DNA of 61,900 bases from contig CAKQXG010000001.1 of assembly GCA_934281515.1 (NCBI GenBank), forward strand, positions 1 to 61,900. Direction: 5' to 3'. A program made the position numbers and the translations under genes. A model generated the notes under the pieces. The model did not search any database. It was not told the origin of the DNA and worked only from the letters and a program-made list of their open reading frames with translations. Each line of letters opens with the position of its first letter. The first letter of the stretch is position 1. Of this stretch, positions 892 to 8,175 are shown piece by piece. Origin of the DNA: an uncultured Clostridia bacterium (GTDB lineage: Bacteria > Bacillota > Clostridia > Christensenellales > CAG-314).

Positions 892-1476
892 TTATATTAT
901 CCTGTTACGTTCAGCTTTAATCTCCGCCGAAATATCGATGTCGCTTGCAGAGGGCAGCGATACGCCTGTAATTCTTGCGCGAGCGGCGTCCACCATCGGG
1001 CGAACGGCGTCGATTTCCGCCTGACTTCTTGCACGATTGGCAGGGTTGGACGTACGCAACGTATTGGACATTGCCTTTTGCGAGATTTGCAAACCACGCA
1101 TATATTTGGCAATTTTGACGTTGGCGCGTTGAATCTTGCGGATGTCGGGCATCTGGCTTTTCCCGTCAGCCATGCGGTCAAGCGCGTTGACTGCGGTAGC
1201 AAGGTTGATAGCAATTGCGTTAGACACGTTGATAATGTCAAAGTTCGCCTTGGCTTGCATAAGTCCGCTGATTACGTCGTTAAGTTGGATAAGCGCGCTG
1301 ATTGCCACATCGTATGTAGCGGTGTCGCCGTTATCCTCTGCCTCGGCGGCAATGGTAGCGTACTCTTCGCGCTTCTTTTTAAGTTCGTTTATCTGGTCGG
1401 CAAAAACCTGCATTTGTTCGTCGCGCTCCATTTGCGCCTGTATTTCCCTTTCTGCCTTGGACTTGAAGAATCCCAT
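892..1476 (-). CDS. 194-aa all-helical coiled-coil protein, ESCRT-III/Snf7/PspA-like (tentative)
   Basis: ORF track. N-terminus MGFFKSKAEREIQ resembles the MxxFGK-type ESCRT-III/PspA N-termini. It has long heptad-like helices (YDVAISALIQLNDVISGLMQAKANFDIINVSNAI; MPDIRKIQRANVKIAKYMRGLQISQKAMSNTL). Its length is about 200 aa. It is translationally coupled to the AAA ATPase. Confidence 0.5.
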   Translation of the reverse strand: MGFFKSKAEREIQAQMERDEQMQVFADQINELKKKREEYATIAAEAEDNGDTATYDVAISALIQLNDVISGLMQAKANFDIINVSNAIAINLATAVNALDRMADGKSQMPDIRKIQRANVKIAKYMRGLQISQKAMSNTLRTSNPANRARSQAEIDAVRPMVDAARARITGVSLPSASDIDISAEIKAERNRII

Positions 1477-1501
1477 TGTTTATTCCTCCGATATCTGGTT
1501 G

Positions 1502-2566
1502 TTATTTTTTATTGTTGGTTTTGGTTGCGGCAGGGTCTGCAACGTCGTCGGGAGTGTCAAGCGTGCGCTTGGTCGGCGGCGTAAGCGAAGCAATGTCGGC
1601 ATTGGTCTGGTTGCGTTCGCGTATTTTACGCATAAGCTCTTCCTTGTAAGCAAGCGCGTCTTGCGACACGGTTGTGCTTGTTCCCTGTTGCCCGAACACC
1701 TTCTGATCCATTGCGCCAACGCCCAATGCAATTTTTTCGATGTCTTTTTGCATCACTTTCAATATTGCAATTGCCTTGTCGGGTTCGGTTACGACGTTTT
1801 TAAGTTTGTCGATGTTAAGCAATGCTTTTGCCTTGCCGATCTCCGCAGGCGAGAAGAATGAGCTTTGCAATATCTCCGCAGCGTTGGCGTAAATCATATC
1901 CAACACGTTGAAGCAAGCCGAGTAGTTTTCGCGGCGCACGTTGAGATTGCCGATGATACTCTTTGCGGCGGATATTTTGCGGTACAACTCGTTGATCTGG
2001 CGTTCGTTGTCCTCTTTTACCATCATGTTTTCCAACTCGGCAAGATCGCGTTCCTTGGATTGAATATCCCTTTCAAGGCGGTTGTTTTGCCCTTCGAGAG
2101 CCGTTTTTATCGTATCAAGCTCGGCAAGGCGGTCAAACAAACGCTTTTGCGCGGCAGTTTTGCGTGCGGCTTGCTCGTTTTCTTCAAAACTGTCAAGCAA
2201 AGCCGTCGCGTCGGGATCGTTGCAGATTTCCGACAGCGTGTCGATGCAAAATTGCAAAGTGTCGGCGTTTTCTTCCAGACGACCCGAGTAAATTTGTCCG
2301 AGCGACTTTTTAAGCGCAACAACCGCTTCTGACGTACTTGCGCCGATTTTGCGCAAATCTTCGTCGCCCGTAAACAACAAACCTTCAACATCGCTGTAAG
2401 ACTTTTTGAGCATTTCCAACACCTTGTCGACGGTTTCCTTGTCGAGTTGCTTGTTATACTTGCCCTTTTCTATAAAAAACACAAGGGCATTAAGTTGTTT
2501 TTTCAGTTCTTCGCACTTTGCGTTGTTAGCCGTTGCGGACGGCACATATTTTTTTGCAAAACACAT
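1502..2566 (-). CDS. 354-aa coiled-coil protein of unknown function; its C-terminal half is possibly a second ESCRT-III/PspA-like helical hairpin
   Basis: ORF track. SD AAAGGAGAG sits 8 nt before the ATG at 2566. It has an extended heptad region (QNNRLERDIQSKERDLAELENMMVKEDNERQINELYRKISAAKSIIGNLNVRRENY...). The tail is T/P/D-rich (TPPTKRTLDTPDDVADPAATKTNNKK). Confidence 0.6.
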   Translation of the reverse strand: MCFAKKYVPSATANNAKCEELKKQLNALVFFIEKGKYNKQLDKETVDKVLEMLKKSYSDVEGLLFTGDEDLRKIGASTSEAVVALKKSLGQIYSGRLEENADTLQFCIDTLSEICNDPDATALLDSFEENEQAARKTAAQKRLFDRLAELDTIKTALEGQNNRLERDIQSKERDLAELENMMVKEDNERQINELYRKISAAKSIIGNLNVRRENYSACFNVLDMIYANAAEILQSSFFSPAEIGKAKALLNIDKLKNVVTEPDKAIAILKVMQKDIEKIALGVGAMDQKVFGQQGTSTTVSQDALAYKEELMRKIRERNQTNADIASLTPPTKRTLDTPDDVADPAATKTNNKK

Positions 2567-2605: not shown

Positions 2606-4051
2606 TTACATCGTGTACAAACCGCGTTGTTTGAAAAACTCCAACGCGCTTGTCAGGTAGTCTTTGCGAGAGATGTTGTCGCGTTCGAATTGTTGTTCCA
2701 ACAGTTTGTTGTTTTCGTCGGATTTGTGACGAATACGATTGAGCGTTGTCCATATGTCGGAGGCGTGCTTGGCATCTTCCACCGACAAACCTGCCTTGAC
2801 AAAGCGCACAACGGGGAACATCTCCACCAGGCAAGGTTTGCCGTCGGCAGTCGTGCTGTACACGCGCGGTTGCAATACGCTTATCGAACCGTCCTTGTTG
2901 CGACGTTTAAGCAAGTTTCTGCCTTCGAACATTGTCGTTTCGGCGATGGCAAGATACTCGTCGTAATCGATAAGAAACTTTTGATCCTTGTGTTGCAAGC
3001 CAAACTTGTGTATAAGGTTGTCCTCGACATTGCTGTACAGCATTGCCGCAGGCGGAATAAGGTCGTCGTCGGTTTTGGCGTGAGCAATCAAAAACTCCGC
3101 CGTAACGTCAAGTGTGCGCAAGTGATCGGCTTTTGCCGCGTCTTGCAGGGGCAACGTTTCCTGTATGCGCTCGTCGATTTCCGACACGATGTTGCGACCG
3201 AACTCTTGCAATTGCGCCGTGAGTTGCGCTATCACCGCCGCAACGAGGTCGTTTTTAAGATTGCCGTTTTCCTCGGCAAAGCGACGATACATTTCTTCGC
3301 TGAAACGGATAATTTTACTACTGCCGTCGTTACCGCCGCCACTGTTGCCGTCATCGTCCTTGCGACCGGGGATTACGCCGCCGTTGTTGATGCGGTCACG
3401 TATGCGCTCAAGGTCCTCCTGATTGATGTGCATGCCGGCAACCACCACATTGTCAAGGCGTATGCCCATAGACGACAACGCCGAGTCCAACTTGAGTTGC
3501 GACTGGATTTCGGCACGGATTTCCGCCATGCGAGCAACCATTTCAAACACAGATACGTTGCTGTCGGCAAACTGTTTGGCAATGACAGGTGCGGCGTCAC
3601 CCTGAATGACGGACAATACGCGTTCATGCACGTCATCAAGCGTAACGTCCTCTCCGTATGGGAAGGCGTTGACCAACTTGACGTAGTCGCAAACAGTCGG
3701 CGTGTAGGTGCCGTTTGCGCCCACGCGGTAAGCTTCGTTAAGACGAGCGTTGTTTACATTGATGTTGCCTACGCCCCACTTGTCGGGAGCCAATGCCTTG
3801 GTGCGCACATATGCAACCTGCACAGTTTGTCCCGCGGCTTGTTTACCGACAAGAGCTAACAACTCCTGCCCGAGACCGCTTTCGCGACGCAACAGCGGCT
3901 TGCCGTTGATAAACACCACCGCCGTATACTGCGGCGGAACCTCCAACGTGGTACCGCGGTCGAGCACAAATTTGCCCGAGTAGGTAATGAGATTTCTCTC
4001 CGACGGATTATCCAGACGGATAAACGTCTTTTTGGGTCCAAACAAACTCAT
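2606..4051 (-). CDS. SPFH/band-7 family protein of the YdjI (COG4260) type with an extra C-terminal domain of about 235 aa of unknown function
   Basis: ORF track. N-terminal aa 1-220 follow the YdjI-like pattern: MSLFG..., LEVPPQYTAVVFINGK, KWGVGNINV, RVGANGTYTPTVCDYVKL, SMGIRLDNVVVAGMHINQEDLERI. A G/D/N/S linker covers aa 222-246. A separate domain runs to aa 481. Confidence 0.7.
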   Translation of the reverse strand: MSLFGPKKTFIRLDNPSERNLITYSGKFVLDRGTTLEVPPQYTAVVFINGKPLLRRESGLGQELLALVGKQAAGQTVQVAYVRTKALAPDKWGVGNINVNNARLNEAYRVGANGTYTPTVCDYVKLVNAFPYGEDVTLDDVHERVLSVIQGDAAPVIAKQFADSNVSVFEMVARMAEIRAEIQSQLKLDSALSSMGIRLDNVVVAGMHINQEDLERIRDRINNGGVIPGRKDDDGNSGGGNDGSSKIIRFSEEMYRRFAEENGNLKNDLVAAVIAQLTAQLQEFGRNIVSEIDERIQETLPLQDAAKADHLRTLDVTAEFLIAHAKTDDDLIPPAAMLYSNVEDNLIHKFGLQHKDQKFLIDYDEYLAIAETTMFEGRNLLKRRNKDGSISVLQPRVYSTTADGKPCLVEMFPVVRFVKAGLSVEDAKHASDIWTTLNRIRHKSDENNKLLEQQFERDNISRKDYLTSALEFFKQRGLYTM

Positions 4052-4413
4052 TTCAAGTCCTCCTCCGAACTACCGTCAATTATTTGACACAGGCGCGTAA
4101 GAGTGGCGTCGTCTATGTCTTCTTTAGCCAGTGTGCGGATAAGCTTCTTGCGCTTGTCCGCCATTTCCGTCAGGTCAATCTTGACGGTGGAAGCCGAAGC
4201 TTCGATTGCGGTATGCAATTCCTTTTGCTCCTCCGCAGAGAGACCGTACTGCCTGACGATCTCCGATTCCAACGTGGAAGGAATGTTGCGTTTGCCGTTT
4301 TCCATTGCAGACAGATACGCCGCACTAAGGGACAATTTCTCCGCCATTGCGCGCAAACTGTCACCGCTGTTTATTCTCATAATTCTCATCACTTTACCGA
4401 ATTCGGTCAGCAT
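4048..4413 (-). CDS. XRE-family helix-turn-helix transcriptional regulator
   Basis: ORF track. The HTH is MRIMRINSGDSLRAMAEKLSLSAAYLSAMENGKRNIP. SD GGAGG precedes the ATG. The stop overlaps the SPFH start (ATGA at 4048-4051). Confidence 0.8.
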   Translation of the reverse strand: MLTEFGKVMRIMRINSGDSLRAMAEKLSLSAAYLSAMENGKRNIPSTLESEIVRQYGLSAEEQKELHTAIEASASTVKIDLTEMADKRKKLIRTLAKEDIDDATLTRLCQIIDGSSEEDLK

Positions 4414-4472: not shown

Positions 4473-4810
4473 CACGATTTGTGAACATTTTTTAAATTTT
4501 TTTAAAATTTTTTACAAATTTTGCCGGACAAACAGTTAAATGTGCGTTTTGAGAGAAAAACTAACATAATTATCCGATGCGACGAGTCGACCGCGAATAC
4601 CGAGCAACCCGACAGTCAATTGAAGTATCGATAATTTTATTGAATTGAGTGAAAAATGCCCGACTACGGCAACTTCGTCAGATAACATATTTGCGCGATA
4701 CAAAAATGCGGTTGCGAACGCCGTGATTAAACGTCGAGTTTCTGCTTGAAAATTCGATCAACTTGTGTTACAATATAGTCAAGAAAAGCAATCCGATATT
4801 GAGGTGTGCC

Positions 4811-5356
4811 ATGCGTATATTCATTGCATTGAAACTACCCGACAAAACCGTCGAAAATCTTGCCCGTTCTGCCACCGACCTGAAACACTTTGACTGTGGC
4901 GGTAGTTTTGTGCCGTCGACCAATTACCACGTGACGTTGCACTTTTTGGGCGAGGTTGCCCCGAGCGACCTTATTTACGTACAAAAAGCGATGGACGAAG
5001 TTGCCAAATTACCTGCACCGACATTGGCAGTACATCAGATATGTACCCTGCGCGCGAGCGACATTGTTTGCGCCAAATTTCGCCCATGCAAGGAGTTGAC
5101 AACTCTGCATGAAACGTTGGGTGCCAAACTCGAAGAACAGCGCTTTACCGTGGAGCACCGCGCTTACCGTCCGCATGTGACAATGGTACGCAAATACAAG
5201 TTTACGTTGCCGTTCAGCGAAGTGAACAAGAGCGTAAAAGTGTACAATATGCCTTTTGTTGCCGACCAACTTGTACTGTACGCCAGCGATTTGCGCCGCG
5301 AAGGTGCCGTCTACACACCGCTGTACACGGTACAATTGCAAACAAACAACGATTAA
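4811..5356 (+). CDS. thpR: RNA 2',3'-cyclic phosphodiesterase (2H phosphoesterase, LigT/ThpR)
   Basis: Two HxT motifs are present (HVTLHFLGE and HVTMVRK). SD GAGGTG precedes the ATG at 4811. The ORF-track start at 4763 is judged too far upstream. Confidence 0.8.
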   Translation: MRIFIALKLPDKTVENLARSATDLKHFDCGGSFVPSTNYHVTLHFLGEVAPSDLIYVQKAMDEVAKLPAPTLAVHQICTLRASDIVCAKFRPCKELTTLHETLGAKLEEQRFTVEHRAYRPHVTMVRKYKFTLPFSEVNKSVKVYNMPFVADQLVLYASDLRREGAVYTPLYTVQLQTNND

Positions 5357-5474
5357 CTTATGCCCCTGTACATAAAATCCAAATACGTATGCAAAATTTT
5401 GTGACAGGCGAGCCGAATTCAAATATGCAAACATTACCCTTGCTAAACGAAAGACGACAAAGAAAGACATGTTA

Positions 5475-5529
5475 CAGTCTTACTTTGCCGTCTTTATTGT
5501 CCTCGCTTTCGAGATCTTTTATTGGCAAG
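5475..5529 (-). repeat. Copy 4 (terminal, 5'-block only) of the toxin-cassette junction repeat
   Basis: cagtcttactttgccgtctttattgtcctcgctttcgagatctttt matches the blocks at 6368-6424, 7297-7352 and 8087-8130. Confidence 0.85.
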
Positions 5530-5539
5530 AATATTTAAT

Positions 5540-6031
5540 TTATTCTTTTATTACAGTAAAAGTGCTCCCATTCAAGCCTTCTATTACTATCTTGCGATCA
5601 CTTGATTTTTGAAATTTAAGTAGTCGTCCTAAAAAATCCACCACTGAGTCGGAATCTCCGCCAACTTCTACTTCTTCATTTATAGCCGAAAAACCAACGT
5701 CGAACTTTTTATCCTTAAAATGCCTTCCGTAAAGATACGTTTCCATAGCGTTGTTTAATACTTCGTAATCTCTCCTACCGTAGTAAAAACACAGCAATTG
5801 ATCCGACTCGTCTGAGAAATTAAACTCAACAAGGCAAAAGTTTTCACTTTCCCAATTGAGAACATACCTTTTCAAATTGAACATAACGATGCCGACAAAT
5901 GCCTTTATTTCATCTTCATTGCATCTCATTTCAGCGTGCCGACCACTGCCGCCAAGTACTATACTACTGTATTTTTCATCAAAATACTTGTTCTCAATTT
6001 CTTGCCAAAACTTTTCGTCTATTTCTTGCAT
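5540..6031 (-). CDS. putative immunity protein (163 aa) for the upstream orphan toxin module
   Basis: ORF track. It has its own SD (GGAGAAAATAAG before the ATG). It lies directly downstream of the toxin C-terminal module, is AT-rich, and shows no recognisable motif. Confidence 0.5.
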   Translation of the reverse strand: MQEIDEKFWQEIENKYFDEKYSSIVLGGSGRHAEMRCNEDEIKAFVGIVMFNLKRYVLNWESENFCLVEFNFSDESDQLLCFYYGRRDYEVLNNAMETYLYGRHFKDKKFDVGFSAINEEVEVGGDSDSVVDFLGRLLKFQKSSDRKIVIEGLNGSTFTVIKE

Positions 6032-6096: not shown

Positions 6097-6366
6097 CTAT
6101 ATTTGCAAATTAATGTAAAAGCCATTACTGATAAGATGAGGGTCGGTCAAATCAATATCAAATCCCCCGTACACATCCATGGTAAATTCTTTTGCATCAT
6201 CAAATGATTCAAAACGTAATTCATACTCATATTTGCACTTATTATGCACCAATACTTTGTCGCCAGACACATAATACGTGTGGAAGTCTTCAACTTCGAA
6301 GTTGTAGGTTATTTGCGGAACACAAAGCTTGTTGATACGAATTTCATCCCAACAGCAAAACCTATT
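6097..6366 (-). pseudogene. orphan polymorphic-toxin module: Hint C-terminal segment plus a short C-terminal domain, with no start codon
   Basis: Own translation: ...WDEIRINKLCVPQITYNFEVEDFHTYYVSGDKVLVHNKCKYEYELRFESFDDAKEFTMDVYGGFDIDLTDPHLISNGFYINLQI*. The open frame is bounded upstream by TGA at 6367-6369. Confidence 0.6.
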
Positions 6367-6424
6367 TCAGTCTTACTTTGCCGTCTTTATTGTCCTCGCT
6401 TTCGGGATCTTTTCTTGGCAAAAA
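6242..6424 (-). repeat. Copy 3 of the toxin-cassette junction repeat (about 183 bp)
   Basis: Near-identical to 7171-7352. It encodes the Hint C-terminus ending VLVHN. Confidence 0.9.
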
Positions 6425-6437
6425 CATTTTTCTTTTT

Positions 6438-6893
6438 CTATTTCCTTACAAGATATGCTTTGTTAAATTCCAGTGTTCCTTGATTGTATCTTCTTAAAAA
6501 ATTTTTCAACGATATAGTGCCTTCAATACTATTATCTTTCGAATTGCCCGTGCGCGTTAACCAATAAATAGTCTTTATTGGTGAACTGTTTATAAAAGTA
6601 CACAATAACCTTTCCATTTCGCAGACTGATATTCTTTCGCTCAAAATTTTATACCGATTTCGCACTACAGCCAAATCAAATATTCCATTTTCATAGTCAT
6701 ATTCTCCATCTTCTGTTACAGGAAAAAGATCATAATCAACACTTGCGAAAGAACTAATAACACTCCAACTTTCTCCGTAATAATAGGATATAGATTTTTT
6801 TCTTTCACATTTGATAAATGAAATAGGTACATCAATAGCCGTATCGGATTTTTGTTTTAACACACCAATATGCCAATCCGCAATAATACTCAC
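6438..6893 (-). CDS. putative immunity protein (151 aa)
   Basis: ORF track. GTG start with SD GGGAGG. It begins 7 nt after the toxin-module stop (TAG at 6900-6902). Confidence 0.5.
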   Translation of the reverse strand: MSIIADWHIGVLKQKSDTAIDVPISFIKCERKKSISYYYGESWSVISSFASVDYDLFPVTEDGEYDYENGIFDLAVVRNRYKILSERISVCEMERLLCTFINSSPIKTIYWLTRTGNSKDNSIEGTISLKNFLRRYNQGTLEFNKAYLVRK

Positions 6894-6899
6894 TTTTAT

Positions 6900-7295
6900 C
6901 TATCCTCCCAAACCTAACGATTGAATTACATCTACTATATTTAGACCAGTAATTTGAAACCCTTTTGAAAAGGACGAGCCCTTAGCCCCCTGATAAGCAA
7001 TATCACCAATAGAATTCAATAATATATCTGGATTGCTGCCAACATTATAGTTTGGCTTCACTTGAGCTATAATTTTCCTCTTAACTTTTCCATGAAAATC
7101 CTCGACTGTTATTCCATATTTATCAGCGATTTTTTCTGGCGAATATAATTTATAATCTTTTTTGCATATATTATGCACCAGCACCATTTCGTCGGTGACA
7201 TAGTATGTGTGGAAGTCTTCAACTTCGAAGTTGTAGGTTATTTGCGGAACACGAAGCTTGTGAATACAGATTTCGTTCCAACAACAAAACCTGTT
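6900..7295 (-). pseudogene. orphan polymorphic-toxin module: Hint C-terminal segment plus a C-terminal domain of about 90 aa of unknown type
   Basis: Own translation: WNEICIHKLRVPQITYNFEVEDFHTYYVTDEMVLVHNICKKDYKLYSPEKIADKYGITVEDFHGKVKRKII...SLGLGG*. The open frame is bounded upstream by TGA at 7296-7298. The only internal Met is at 7187 (the ORF-track ORF). Confidence 0.6.
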
Positions 7296-7352
7296 TCAGT
7301 CTTACTTTACCGGCCTTATTATCCTCGCTTTCGGGATCTTTTCTTGGCAAAA
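7171..7352 (-). repeat. Copy 2 of the toxin-cassette junction repeat
   Basis: Aligns base-for-base with 6242-6424 with few substitutions. Confidence 0.9.
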
Positions 7353-7367
7353 TAACGAATATTTATT

Positions 7368-7673
7368 TTAAAACACACGCCAAAACGCAAAAACACTCAT
7401 AGAAACTTCTGCTATGGCAAATTTTTTACCAGAGTTTGTCTCCCTCACGTGTAAAAGTTGCAATTGATTATACCTCAAGTCGTATCCATAGCAAAATTCA
7501 TTTCGACTTTTAGAAAATGAAGTGTTTTCTCCATCTATGAAAAATGAATCATTGTGACTTTCACCTAAAAAAACGGTATTGTACGCAACAAAGATTTCAT
7601 CAAAATCATTCATAAGTCCAAGACCCGTTTCCATCAAAACTTTTGCTCTTTTTCTTTCCAAGTCGTTTTGCAT
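7368..7673 (-). CDS. putative immunity protein (101 aa)
   Basis: ORF track. SD GGGAGAG. It starts 10 nt after the stop of the TNT-like module. Confidence 0.5.
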   Translation of the reverse strand: MQNDLERKRAKVLMETGLGLMNDFDEIFVAYNTVFLGESHNDSFFIDGENTSFSKSRNEFCYGYDLRYNQLQLLHVRETNSGKKFAIAEVSMSVFAFWRVF

Positions 7674-8002: not shown

Positions 8003-8130
8003 TTCAAAGTTGTACGTTATCTGCGAAACAAGAAGCTTCTGTATACAGATTTCGTTCCAACAGCAAGACTTATTTCAGTCTTACTTTGCCAGCTTTACTG
8101 TCCTCGCTTTCGGGATCTTTTCTTGGCAAA
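8003..8130 (-). repeat. Copy 1 (degraded) of the toxin-cassette junction repeat
   Basis: It has the same 5' block. The Hint part has decayed (ITYNFEFVPSQ*). Confidence 0.8.
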
Positions 8131-8175
8131 GTACTCAAAATTCAATTAGTCTATTAAGTTATTATAGTAATATTT

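Follow-up and report, generated by a model that had tools for sequence, protein, structure and literature searches.

The stretch of DNA analysed here, hereafter the window, comprises 61,900 nucleotides (nts) at one contig end of a 2.05-Mb metagenome-assembled genome (MAG), 85% complete, of an uncultured Clostridia bacterium, whose proteins have their closest named relatives in uncultured gut Clostridia, among them Candidatus Borkfalkia. At the start of the window lies an operon of five closely packed minus-strand genes, encoding an XRE-type helix-turn-helix (HTH) regulator, an SPFH protein, a coiled-coil protein of 354 amino acids (aa), a protein of 194 aa and an AAA ATPase. The 194-aa protein is homologous to ESCRT-III proteins and is, very probably, a genuine and very divergent member of that superfamily, nearer to the Snf7/CdvB side than to PspA/Vipp1. 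Taken as a whole, the locus is read here, with a probability of about 0.6, as encoding a divergent bacterial ESCRT-III protein of the Snf7/CdvB/CHMP side together with an ATPase of Vps4/CdvC build, within a membrane-associated conflict or defence island. A preliminary description of the sequence had proposed two ESCRT-III-like subunits served by one ATPase. Both open reading frames (ORFs) are present where it placed them, on the minus strand at 892-1476 (194 aa) and 1502-2566 (354 aa). The ESCRT-III-like character of the 194-aa protein is supported, and so is its pairing with an AAA ATPase built like Vps4.

Relationship of the 194-aa protein to ESCRT-III

The 194-aa protein belongs to a small family, with 39 matches among 1.84 billion representative proteins and about ten full-length clusters. 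Scans with Pfam, NCBIfam and PADLOC assigned it to no curated family, and a large homology search with the family profile retrieved close relatives only, with no remote Pfam-annotated matches; for some of the divergent members the available contigs are only 1 kb long. When the single sequence was compared by phmmer with all PDB chains, CHMP3 accounted for 3 of the only 4 matches (E 0.14), in an end-to-end, colinear alignment that pairs residues 16-163 with 17-167 of CHMP3. The preliminary description had pointed to a segment resembling the M..KI...M.EF block of CHMP proteins, and HMMER indeed places the MPDIRKIQ...MSNTL block of the 194-aa protein on KIPEIQATMRELSKEMMKAGIIEEMLEDTF / KIPEIQATMRELSKEMMKAGIIEEML of CHMP3.

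With a profile of 14 family members, Sulfolobus CdvB (9s9j) comes out on top of 177,635 distinct PDB sequences (E 5e-4), in an alignment that is in register (positions 15-100 against 27-112) and covers alpha1-alpha2/3. A second profile, made from eight divergent members with mutual identities of 19-33% and excluding the clade of the query, again places CdvB 9s9j first in the PDB (E 5e-5). The real CdvB segment scores 23.9 and 26.6 bits with the two profiles. For 2000 composition-matched shuffles of this segment, the mean was about -1.5 (standard deviation 3.4) and the maxima were 11.6 and 6.1. None of the 2000 reached the real score, which corresponds to a z-score of about 7-8, and reversal of the sequence brought the score to about 0. 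The profile score against the CHMP3 segment was matched or beaten by 5-6 of 2000 shuffles.

AlphaFold2, supplied with the family alignment, predicts helices at residues 7-49, 52-102, 112-128, 131-142, 152-170 and 182-192 of the 194-aa protein. This predicted succession fits the ESCRT-III order of an alpha1-alpha2/3 hairpin followed by four short helices, and the first two correspond to the long helices that had been claimed at the alpha1-alpha3 positions. Confidence (predicted local distance difference test, pLDDT) is 73-83 in blocks over most of the hairpin. The MGFFKSK N-terminus, singled out earlier as amphipathic, is present and follows a family consensus of M[GA]F[FY]K[ST]K, and an S-N-P-A motif (N144, P145, A146) is invariant in the family alignment. 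In Foldseek comparisons of the model with the PDB no match is significant; CdvB ranks 3-4, CHMP3 10 and Asgard ESCRT-IIIB 16, with the helical proteins Shroom and 14-3-3 also among the matches. Among the viral models of BFVD, the top match is a giant-virus Snf7 family protein (probability 0.99, TMq 0.53), which superposes with a root-mean-square deviation of 6.6 A over 169 columns, and a phage PspA/IM30 protein stands at rank 4 (probability 0.35).

These data bear on the view that the resemblance is a coiled-coil artefact. The 194-aa protein would then serve a TIR/AAA conflict system as a generic helical adaptor and take no part in membrane remodelling. Such a view draws on the Foldseek E-values, on Shroom and 14-3-3 among the fold matches, on the lack of a Pfam match and on a neutrophil-activating protein, which likewise scores E about 0.01 in the family-profile searches of the PDB. 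It is nevertheless highly unlikely, given that CdvB returns to the first place with a profile that excludes the clade of the query, that its score stands far above those of shuffled and reversed sequences, and that a Snf7 model heads the viral matches. Furthermore, the hidden Markov model (HMM) of the 354-aa coiled-coil family scores CdvB and CHMP3 within the range of shuffled sequences and thus serves as an internal negative control for the signal obtained with the 194-aa profiles.

A second alternative would place the 194-aa protein on the PspA/Vipp1 branch, as a stress-induced membrane-stabilising carpet recruited by the SPFH protein, with the AAA and TIR genes as unrelated neighbours. The same operon does contain an SPFH gene of the YdjI type, and in B. 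subtilis the SPFH protein YdjI localises PspA, recruiting it to the membrane, as cited in PMC10936438 and PMC11237479. The phage PspA/IM30 match in BFVD also speaks for this branch, as does the fact that a canonical PspA was not found in the 85%-complete genome. However, PspA/Vipp1 chains were absent from all PDB sequence searches made with the 194-aa protein or its profiles, which yielded CdvB and CHMP3; PF04012 does not match the locus; AAA and TIR genes co-occur in all sufficiently long loci; and the ATPase start lies 1 nt after the stop codon of the 194-aa gene. This alternative is accordingly judged improbable, and the Snf7/CdvB side is retained.

At the other end of the protein, a C-terminal segment of the form DI(D/S)xSAEIxAEKNxII, or more loosely D(I/L)xAEIxAEKNxII, is conserved family-wide, lies behind a low-confidence linker and is predicted to form a helix, which is amphipathic. 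The spacing of an MIT-interacting motif of type 1 (MIM1) had been claimed for this tail. The MIM1 consensus is (D/E)xxLxxRLxxL(K/R). When D179-I194 is counted from D179 as 0, positions 3, 7 and 11 fit (I, I, R), while the E found at position 6 and again at position 10 departs from it. The tail thus agrees with the consensus only in part. The tail reads SAEIEAEKNxII in type-1 loci and LADEIAKEKNKII in type-2 loci. Co-variation between the tail and the type of ATPase N-domain was considered and rejected as evidence, being confounded with phylogeny.

The ATPase and the 354-aa coiled-coil protein

The 194-aa ORF is preceded by a GGAGG ribosome-binding site 9 nts upstream of its ATG and is followed by the ATPase gene, which the contig end interrupts. 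The remainder of the ATPase and the genes downstream are found on contig C95 of the same genome, with ATPase residues 310-426 at G000:C95:1-351; the full 426-aa sequence was taken from a 98%-identical contig. The ATPase consists of a helical N-domain of ~90 aa, a low-complexity linker, a single AAA domain (PF00004, E 6.7e-31) and a C-terminal helix resembling Vps4_C, so that its build, as judged from sequence, appears Vps4-like. The Vps4_C score of 20.6 bits falls just below the cut-off of 21.3, and Vps4_C is matched in 12 of the 15 orthologues (best E 1.4e-4). The best NCBIfam model for the ATPase of the window is CdvC, with 157 bits against a cut-off of 650, followed by PAN (149) and CDC48 (147); type-2 orthologues score higher with PAN and CDC48 than with CdvC.

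Searches of the PDB with the ATPase, by phmmer and by profile, retrieved no MIT chain. The N-domain is shorter in type-2 ATPases and gave weak TPR matches only; MIT domains are themselves TPR-like. The two types of N-domain align weakly with each other over a helical unit of ~60 residues (hhalign E 7e-4, probability 26%).

The 354-aa protein has about 280 relatives, whose alignment contains 51 invariant columns, and its gene adjoins the 194-aa gene in 16 of 16 genome loci as well as in every other locus examined. No curated family was found for it in Pfam, NCBIfam or PADLOC scans. AlphaFold2 predicts a confident N-terminal helical bundle (residues about 11-125, pLDDT about 90), a single helix of 82 residues (127-208) and then helices of low confidence; behind these and a disordered linker, both the model and the alignment show an amphipathic helix that is conserved (DALAYKEELMRK, residues 302-328). 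The sequence quoted in the preliminary description from the C-terminal half is present and strongly conserved. However, the hairpin-like pattern said to be repeated there is not what the model gives, which is the one 82-residue helix and the low-confidence helices behind it. The proline- and acid-rich tail exists in the copy of the window and is confined to its close clade. At the extreme C-terminus, the homologues at L010, L012, L015 and L022 have in common a motif (E/D)(N/D)K(N/T)(N/D)G(I/V)L, which the copy of the window lacks.

That the 194-aa and 354-aa proteins might both be ESCRT-III subunits, forming a heteropolymer that binds the ATPase at an MIT domain through MIM-like tails, was the core of the preliminary description. 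The invariable adjacency of the two genes, the succession of a long helix, further helices, a disordered linker and the conserved amphipathic DALAYKEELMRK in the C-terminal half of the 354-aa protein, the weakly alignable helical unit of the ATPase N-domains and the weak TPR likeness of the type-2 N-domains are all compatible with it. Sequence-profile, profile-profile and fold searches were nevertheless uniformly negative for the 354-aa protein. Its profile retrieved designed coiled coils and no ESCRT-III from the PDB, hhalign gave a probability of 0.2% between the 354-aa and 194-aa families, the top 50 PDB matches of its model in Foldseek contained no ESCRT-III or PspA entry (E>0.1 only), and the behaviour of its HMM on CdvB and CHMP3 was described above. 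In addition, the tail rich in proline and acidic residues is not conserved and the ATPase has no MIT match. A second ESCRT-III subunit is therefore not supported and the heteropolymer is unlikely. These negative tests, combined with the strong conservation of the protein, lead us to see in the 354-aa protein a coiled-coil partner that is conserved and specific to the family, and that may act as an adaptor or nucleator.

Conserved neighbourhood, distribution and a possible role in conflict

The neighbourhood of the 194-aa gene is conserved. Sixteen loci from species-representative genomes carry the same gene set, with 194-aa proteins that are 60-76% identical. The gene order is HTH (where present), SPFH, 354-aa and 194-aa, then TIR and AAA in either order, the SPFH gene being counted wherever the contig reaches it, and the AAA and TIR genes where the contigs extend far enough (L012 stops at the 194-aa gene). 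The HTH regulator was detected in 10 of the 16 loci (46-56% identity) and is elsewhere absent or past the contig end. In the window, its gene overlaps the start of the SPFH gene by 4 nts, and PADLOC matches the protein to HTH_VI and control-protein. The SPFH protein reaches the gathering score of PF13421 (29 bits against 24, residues 78-212) and has a variable C-terminal half; in type-2 loci the gene is reduced to an SPFH part of roughly 220 aa.

Three near-identical metagenome contigs carry the same gene set and extend the operon by the downstream genes listed in Table 1. Among their products, the 1593-aa protein combines N-terminal Zn-ribbon, TPR and TIR domains with one strong transmembrane helix (residues 791-809) and C-terminal LRR_5/Flg_new repeats. 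Its predicted topology, with external leucine-rich repeats (LRR), one transmembrane segment and a cytoplasmic TIR domain, resembles that of a Toll-like receptor. Several paralogues of this protein have a common Zn-ribbon-TPR-TIR head and differ in their C-terminal parts. A second cluster in the same genome (G000:C22, L042:3910-12950) encodes a 515-aa AAA ATPase (36% identity) and three proteins of the Zn-ribbon-TPR-TIR type (up to 60%), and lacks ESCRT-III-like, 354-aa and SPFH genes.

A divergent member of the 194-aa family occurs in a congeneric genome (hhalign probability 96.5%; gene 9524-10108 of L040, which is G051:C10:27000-46500). It sits between two classical AAA ATPases, close to a RuvB-like ATPase, a trypsin-like protease and Zn-ribbon proteins, and no TIR gene was found near it. 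As AAA genes are present in this locus without a TIR gene, the link to AAA ATPases appears to persist while the putative effectors vary. A 192-aa helical neighbour was considered as a second ESCRT-III-like paralogue and set aside, its colinear alignment not being significant (hhalign E 0.15).

The distribution of the 194-aa gene is patchy. It is present in 3 of the 82 genomes of the bacterial family, a sample of 400 further genomes of the phylum lacked it, and the carriers are MAGs labelled as several different orders. Collections of phages, plasmids and viral contigs contained no match to the gene, and a phage-borne origin was dropped on these grounds. The rare and patchy occurrence of a locked gene set argues for a horizontally moving accessory island rather than for a housekeeping division or trafficking system. 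Together with the TIR linkage, this island-like distribution points to a role in conflict or defence, a function in which ESCRT-III-type polymers would be new. Control by an XRE protein and genomic locking to TIR proteins, one of which spans the membrane, make a membrane-associated conflict or defence system the most likely setting.

In such a system, the 194-aa protein would polymerise on the inner face of the membrane, using the hydrophobic motif at its N-terminus and the helical hairpin. It could be recruited or scaffolded by the 354-aa protein and the YdjI-type SPFH protein, in parallel to YdjI and PspA in B. subtilis, and the AAA ATPase would grip its C-terminal tail and unfold the subunits, leading to turnover of the polymer. 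Sensing and/or NAD+-directed effector activity may come from the TIR proteins, of which one resembles a transmembrane LRR receptor, and the XRE protein would control expression of the module. In this way, TIR signalling or NAD+ consumption would be linked with membrane remodelling or repair. The polymer itself might serve in membrane repair, as an effector or as a sensor. The more specific proposal, an immune module of bacteria that joins an ESCRT-III/Vps4-type membrane-remodelling machine to TIR proteins, an SPFH scaffold and a coiled-coil adaptor, is tentative and rather doubtful in this full form.

Several observations weigh against the reading of the locus as an ESCRT-III and ATPase pair in a defence island. 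The Pfam models for Snf7 (PF03357) and PspA (PF04012) do not match the 194-aa protein, and PF03357 matches none of 14 members of its family. A search of the genome with PF03357 was likewise empty, although in a six-frame control 0 of 14 control genomes, Sulfolobus included, rose above the cut-off. The AlphaFold2 model of the 194-aa protein is of moderate confidence (mean pLDDT 66), and every Foldseek E-value obtained with it, in the PDB and in BFVD, is >0.1. Pfam detects no MIT domain in the ATPase, whether in the full-length protein or the N-domain alone and for both orthologue types. Since the PAN and CDC48 scores of the ATPase nearly equal that of CdvC, and are higher in type-2 orthologues, a placement in the Vps4 clade is not established. 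As to the island, the taxonomic labels of the MAGs may be unreliable, which weakens the argument for horizontal transfer. As to defence, the comparison of the operon proteins with PADLOC-DB v2 revealed no catalogued anti-phage system, with generic AAA (IetA, TRIP13) and HTH matches only and nothing for the 194-aa, 354-aa or SPFH proteins.

Known systems and further features of the window

The archaeal Cdv core of Sulfolobus/Saccharolobus is similar in that a small gene of the ESCRT-III type stands beside a single-domain AAA ATPase with a Vps4_C-like helix. No sequence matches the 194-aa family better than CdvB, and CdvC is the best NCBIfam model of the ATPase. However, the operon described here lacks CdvA and a winged-helix (wH) domain, its ATPase, at 157 bits against 650, falls far short of the CdvC cut-off and has no MIT match, and it adds the XRE, SPFH, 354-aa coiled-coil and TIR proteins. 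The system is, moreover, a rare accessory island and not a division machine; the carrier bacteria presumably divide with FtsZ. CHMP3/Vps24 and the other CHMP/Snf7 proteins that work with VPS4 resemble the 194-aa protein in length, in a hydrophobic motif at the N-terminus and in an amphipathic helix that follows a flexible linker at the C-terminus, and the alignment with CHMP3 is colinear and includes the 'KIPEIQ..M.EL.KEM' block. The similarity is nevertheless weak (E 0.14 for the single sequence, and a profile score that 5-6 of 2000 shuffles reach), with no match to the Pfam Snf7 model and a MIM1 consensus that is met in part.

ESCRT-III is known to counter membrane damage during cell-death immunity in eukaryotes, and the locus, if the tentative immune-module proposal is correct, would represent a prokaryotic counterpart of that action, in which bacterial membrane repair or scission is wired to TIR signalling. 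In bacteria, such a system would be compact as well as experimentally tractable. Under the same proposal, bacteria would possess a true Snf7-Vps4 pair, of a sort that recent reviews regard as missing there. In the words of a 2025 review (PMC7619361), a Vps4-like ATPase 'appears absent in bacteria', and according to a 2024 survey (PMC10936438) ESCRT components can be identified in archaea 'but not in bacteria'. Against these statements, a Snf7/CdvB-like protein paired with a Vps4-style ATPase in bacteria would widen the range of ATP-driven ESCRT-III.

The general theme has a precedent, since Popp et al. 2024 (PMC11237479) reported sporadic bacterial Snf7-clade proteins associated with AAA+ ATPases, as well as transfers of Vps4-like ATPases in which Snf7 was replaced. 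The contexts differ, being operons with ABC transporter or OmpA-PBPB genes, or TPR-6TM proteins in the place of Snf7. Similarly, the ydjFGHI operon of B. subtilis co-encodes PspA (YdjF), an ESCRT-III-superfamily protein, with an SPFH protein of the PF13421 type. By comparison, the 194-aa protein has no PspA/Vipp1 sequence signal, equivalents of YdjG and YdjH were not recognised in the operon, and an AAA ATPase and TIR proteins are found instead. Full-text literature searches yielded no description of the XRE-SPFH-354-194-AAA-TIR set, and the conflict-system surveys searched do not mention ESCRT or Vps4. The locus is read here as an ESCRT-III plus AAA module in bacteria that is tied to SPFH and TIR proteins.

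Table 1. Genes of the operon in the window, the divergent neighbouring gene and the genes found downstream on related contigs
Feature	Position	Strand	Basis or remark
XRE-family HTH regulator, 121 aa, first gene of the operon	4048..4413	-	HTH_31, E 1.2e-7
SPFH/Band-7 protein, YdjI type (PF13421), 481 aa	2606..4051	-	Band_7_1 match
Conserved coiled-coil partner, 354 aa	1502..2566	-	Alignment, AlphaFold2; not detectably ESCRT-III
ESCRT-III-like (Snf7/CdvB-type) protein, 194 aa	892..1476	-	Profiles, shuffles, AlphaFold2, family alignment
Classical AAA ATPase, N-terminal 296 of 426 aa	3..890	-	PF00004; gene cut by contig end
LigT-like 2H phosphoesterase, divergent from the operon	4763..5356	+	LigT_PEase, E 3.1e-15
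FtsK/HerA-type P-loop protein, 265 aa	downstream		Metagenome contigs
Zn-ribbon-TPR-TIR protein, 590 aa	downstream		Metagenome contigs
Small membrane protein, 205 aa	downstream		Metagenome contigs
Zn-ribbon-TPR-TIR protein with transmembrane helix and LRR_5/Flg_new repeats, 1593 aa	L003:15414-20195; also G000:C95, L041:3901-7747		

Beside the regulator of the operon and divergent from it lies the gene of a LigT-like 2H phosphoesterase. Nucleotide signals that are cyclic or 2',5'-linked can be hydrolysed by enzymes with this fold, and the gene may matter in the vicinity of TIR genes. It adjoins the operon in L003-L005, which are close relatives only, and was undetected in L009-L024.

Further along the window, an 89-nt repeat occurs in four copies (5461-5549, 6354-6442, 7283-7371 and 8062-8150) spaced by 780-930 nts, in a stretch of 35-39% G+C content. 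No match to the repeat was found in Rfam. Each copy lies directly 3′ of a small minus-strand ORF that has no Pfam match, and folding of the minus-strand RNA gave a common outer stem (UUGCC...GGCAA) with an inner hairpin. The stretch looks like a gene-cassette array with an element that resembles a recombination site or a terminator.

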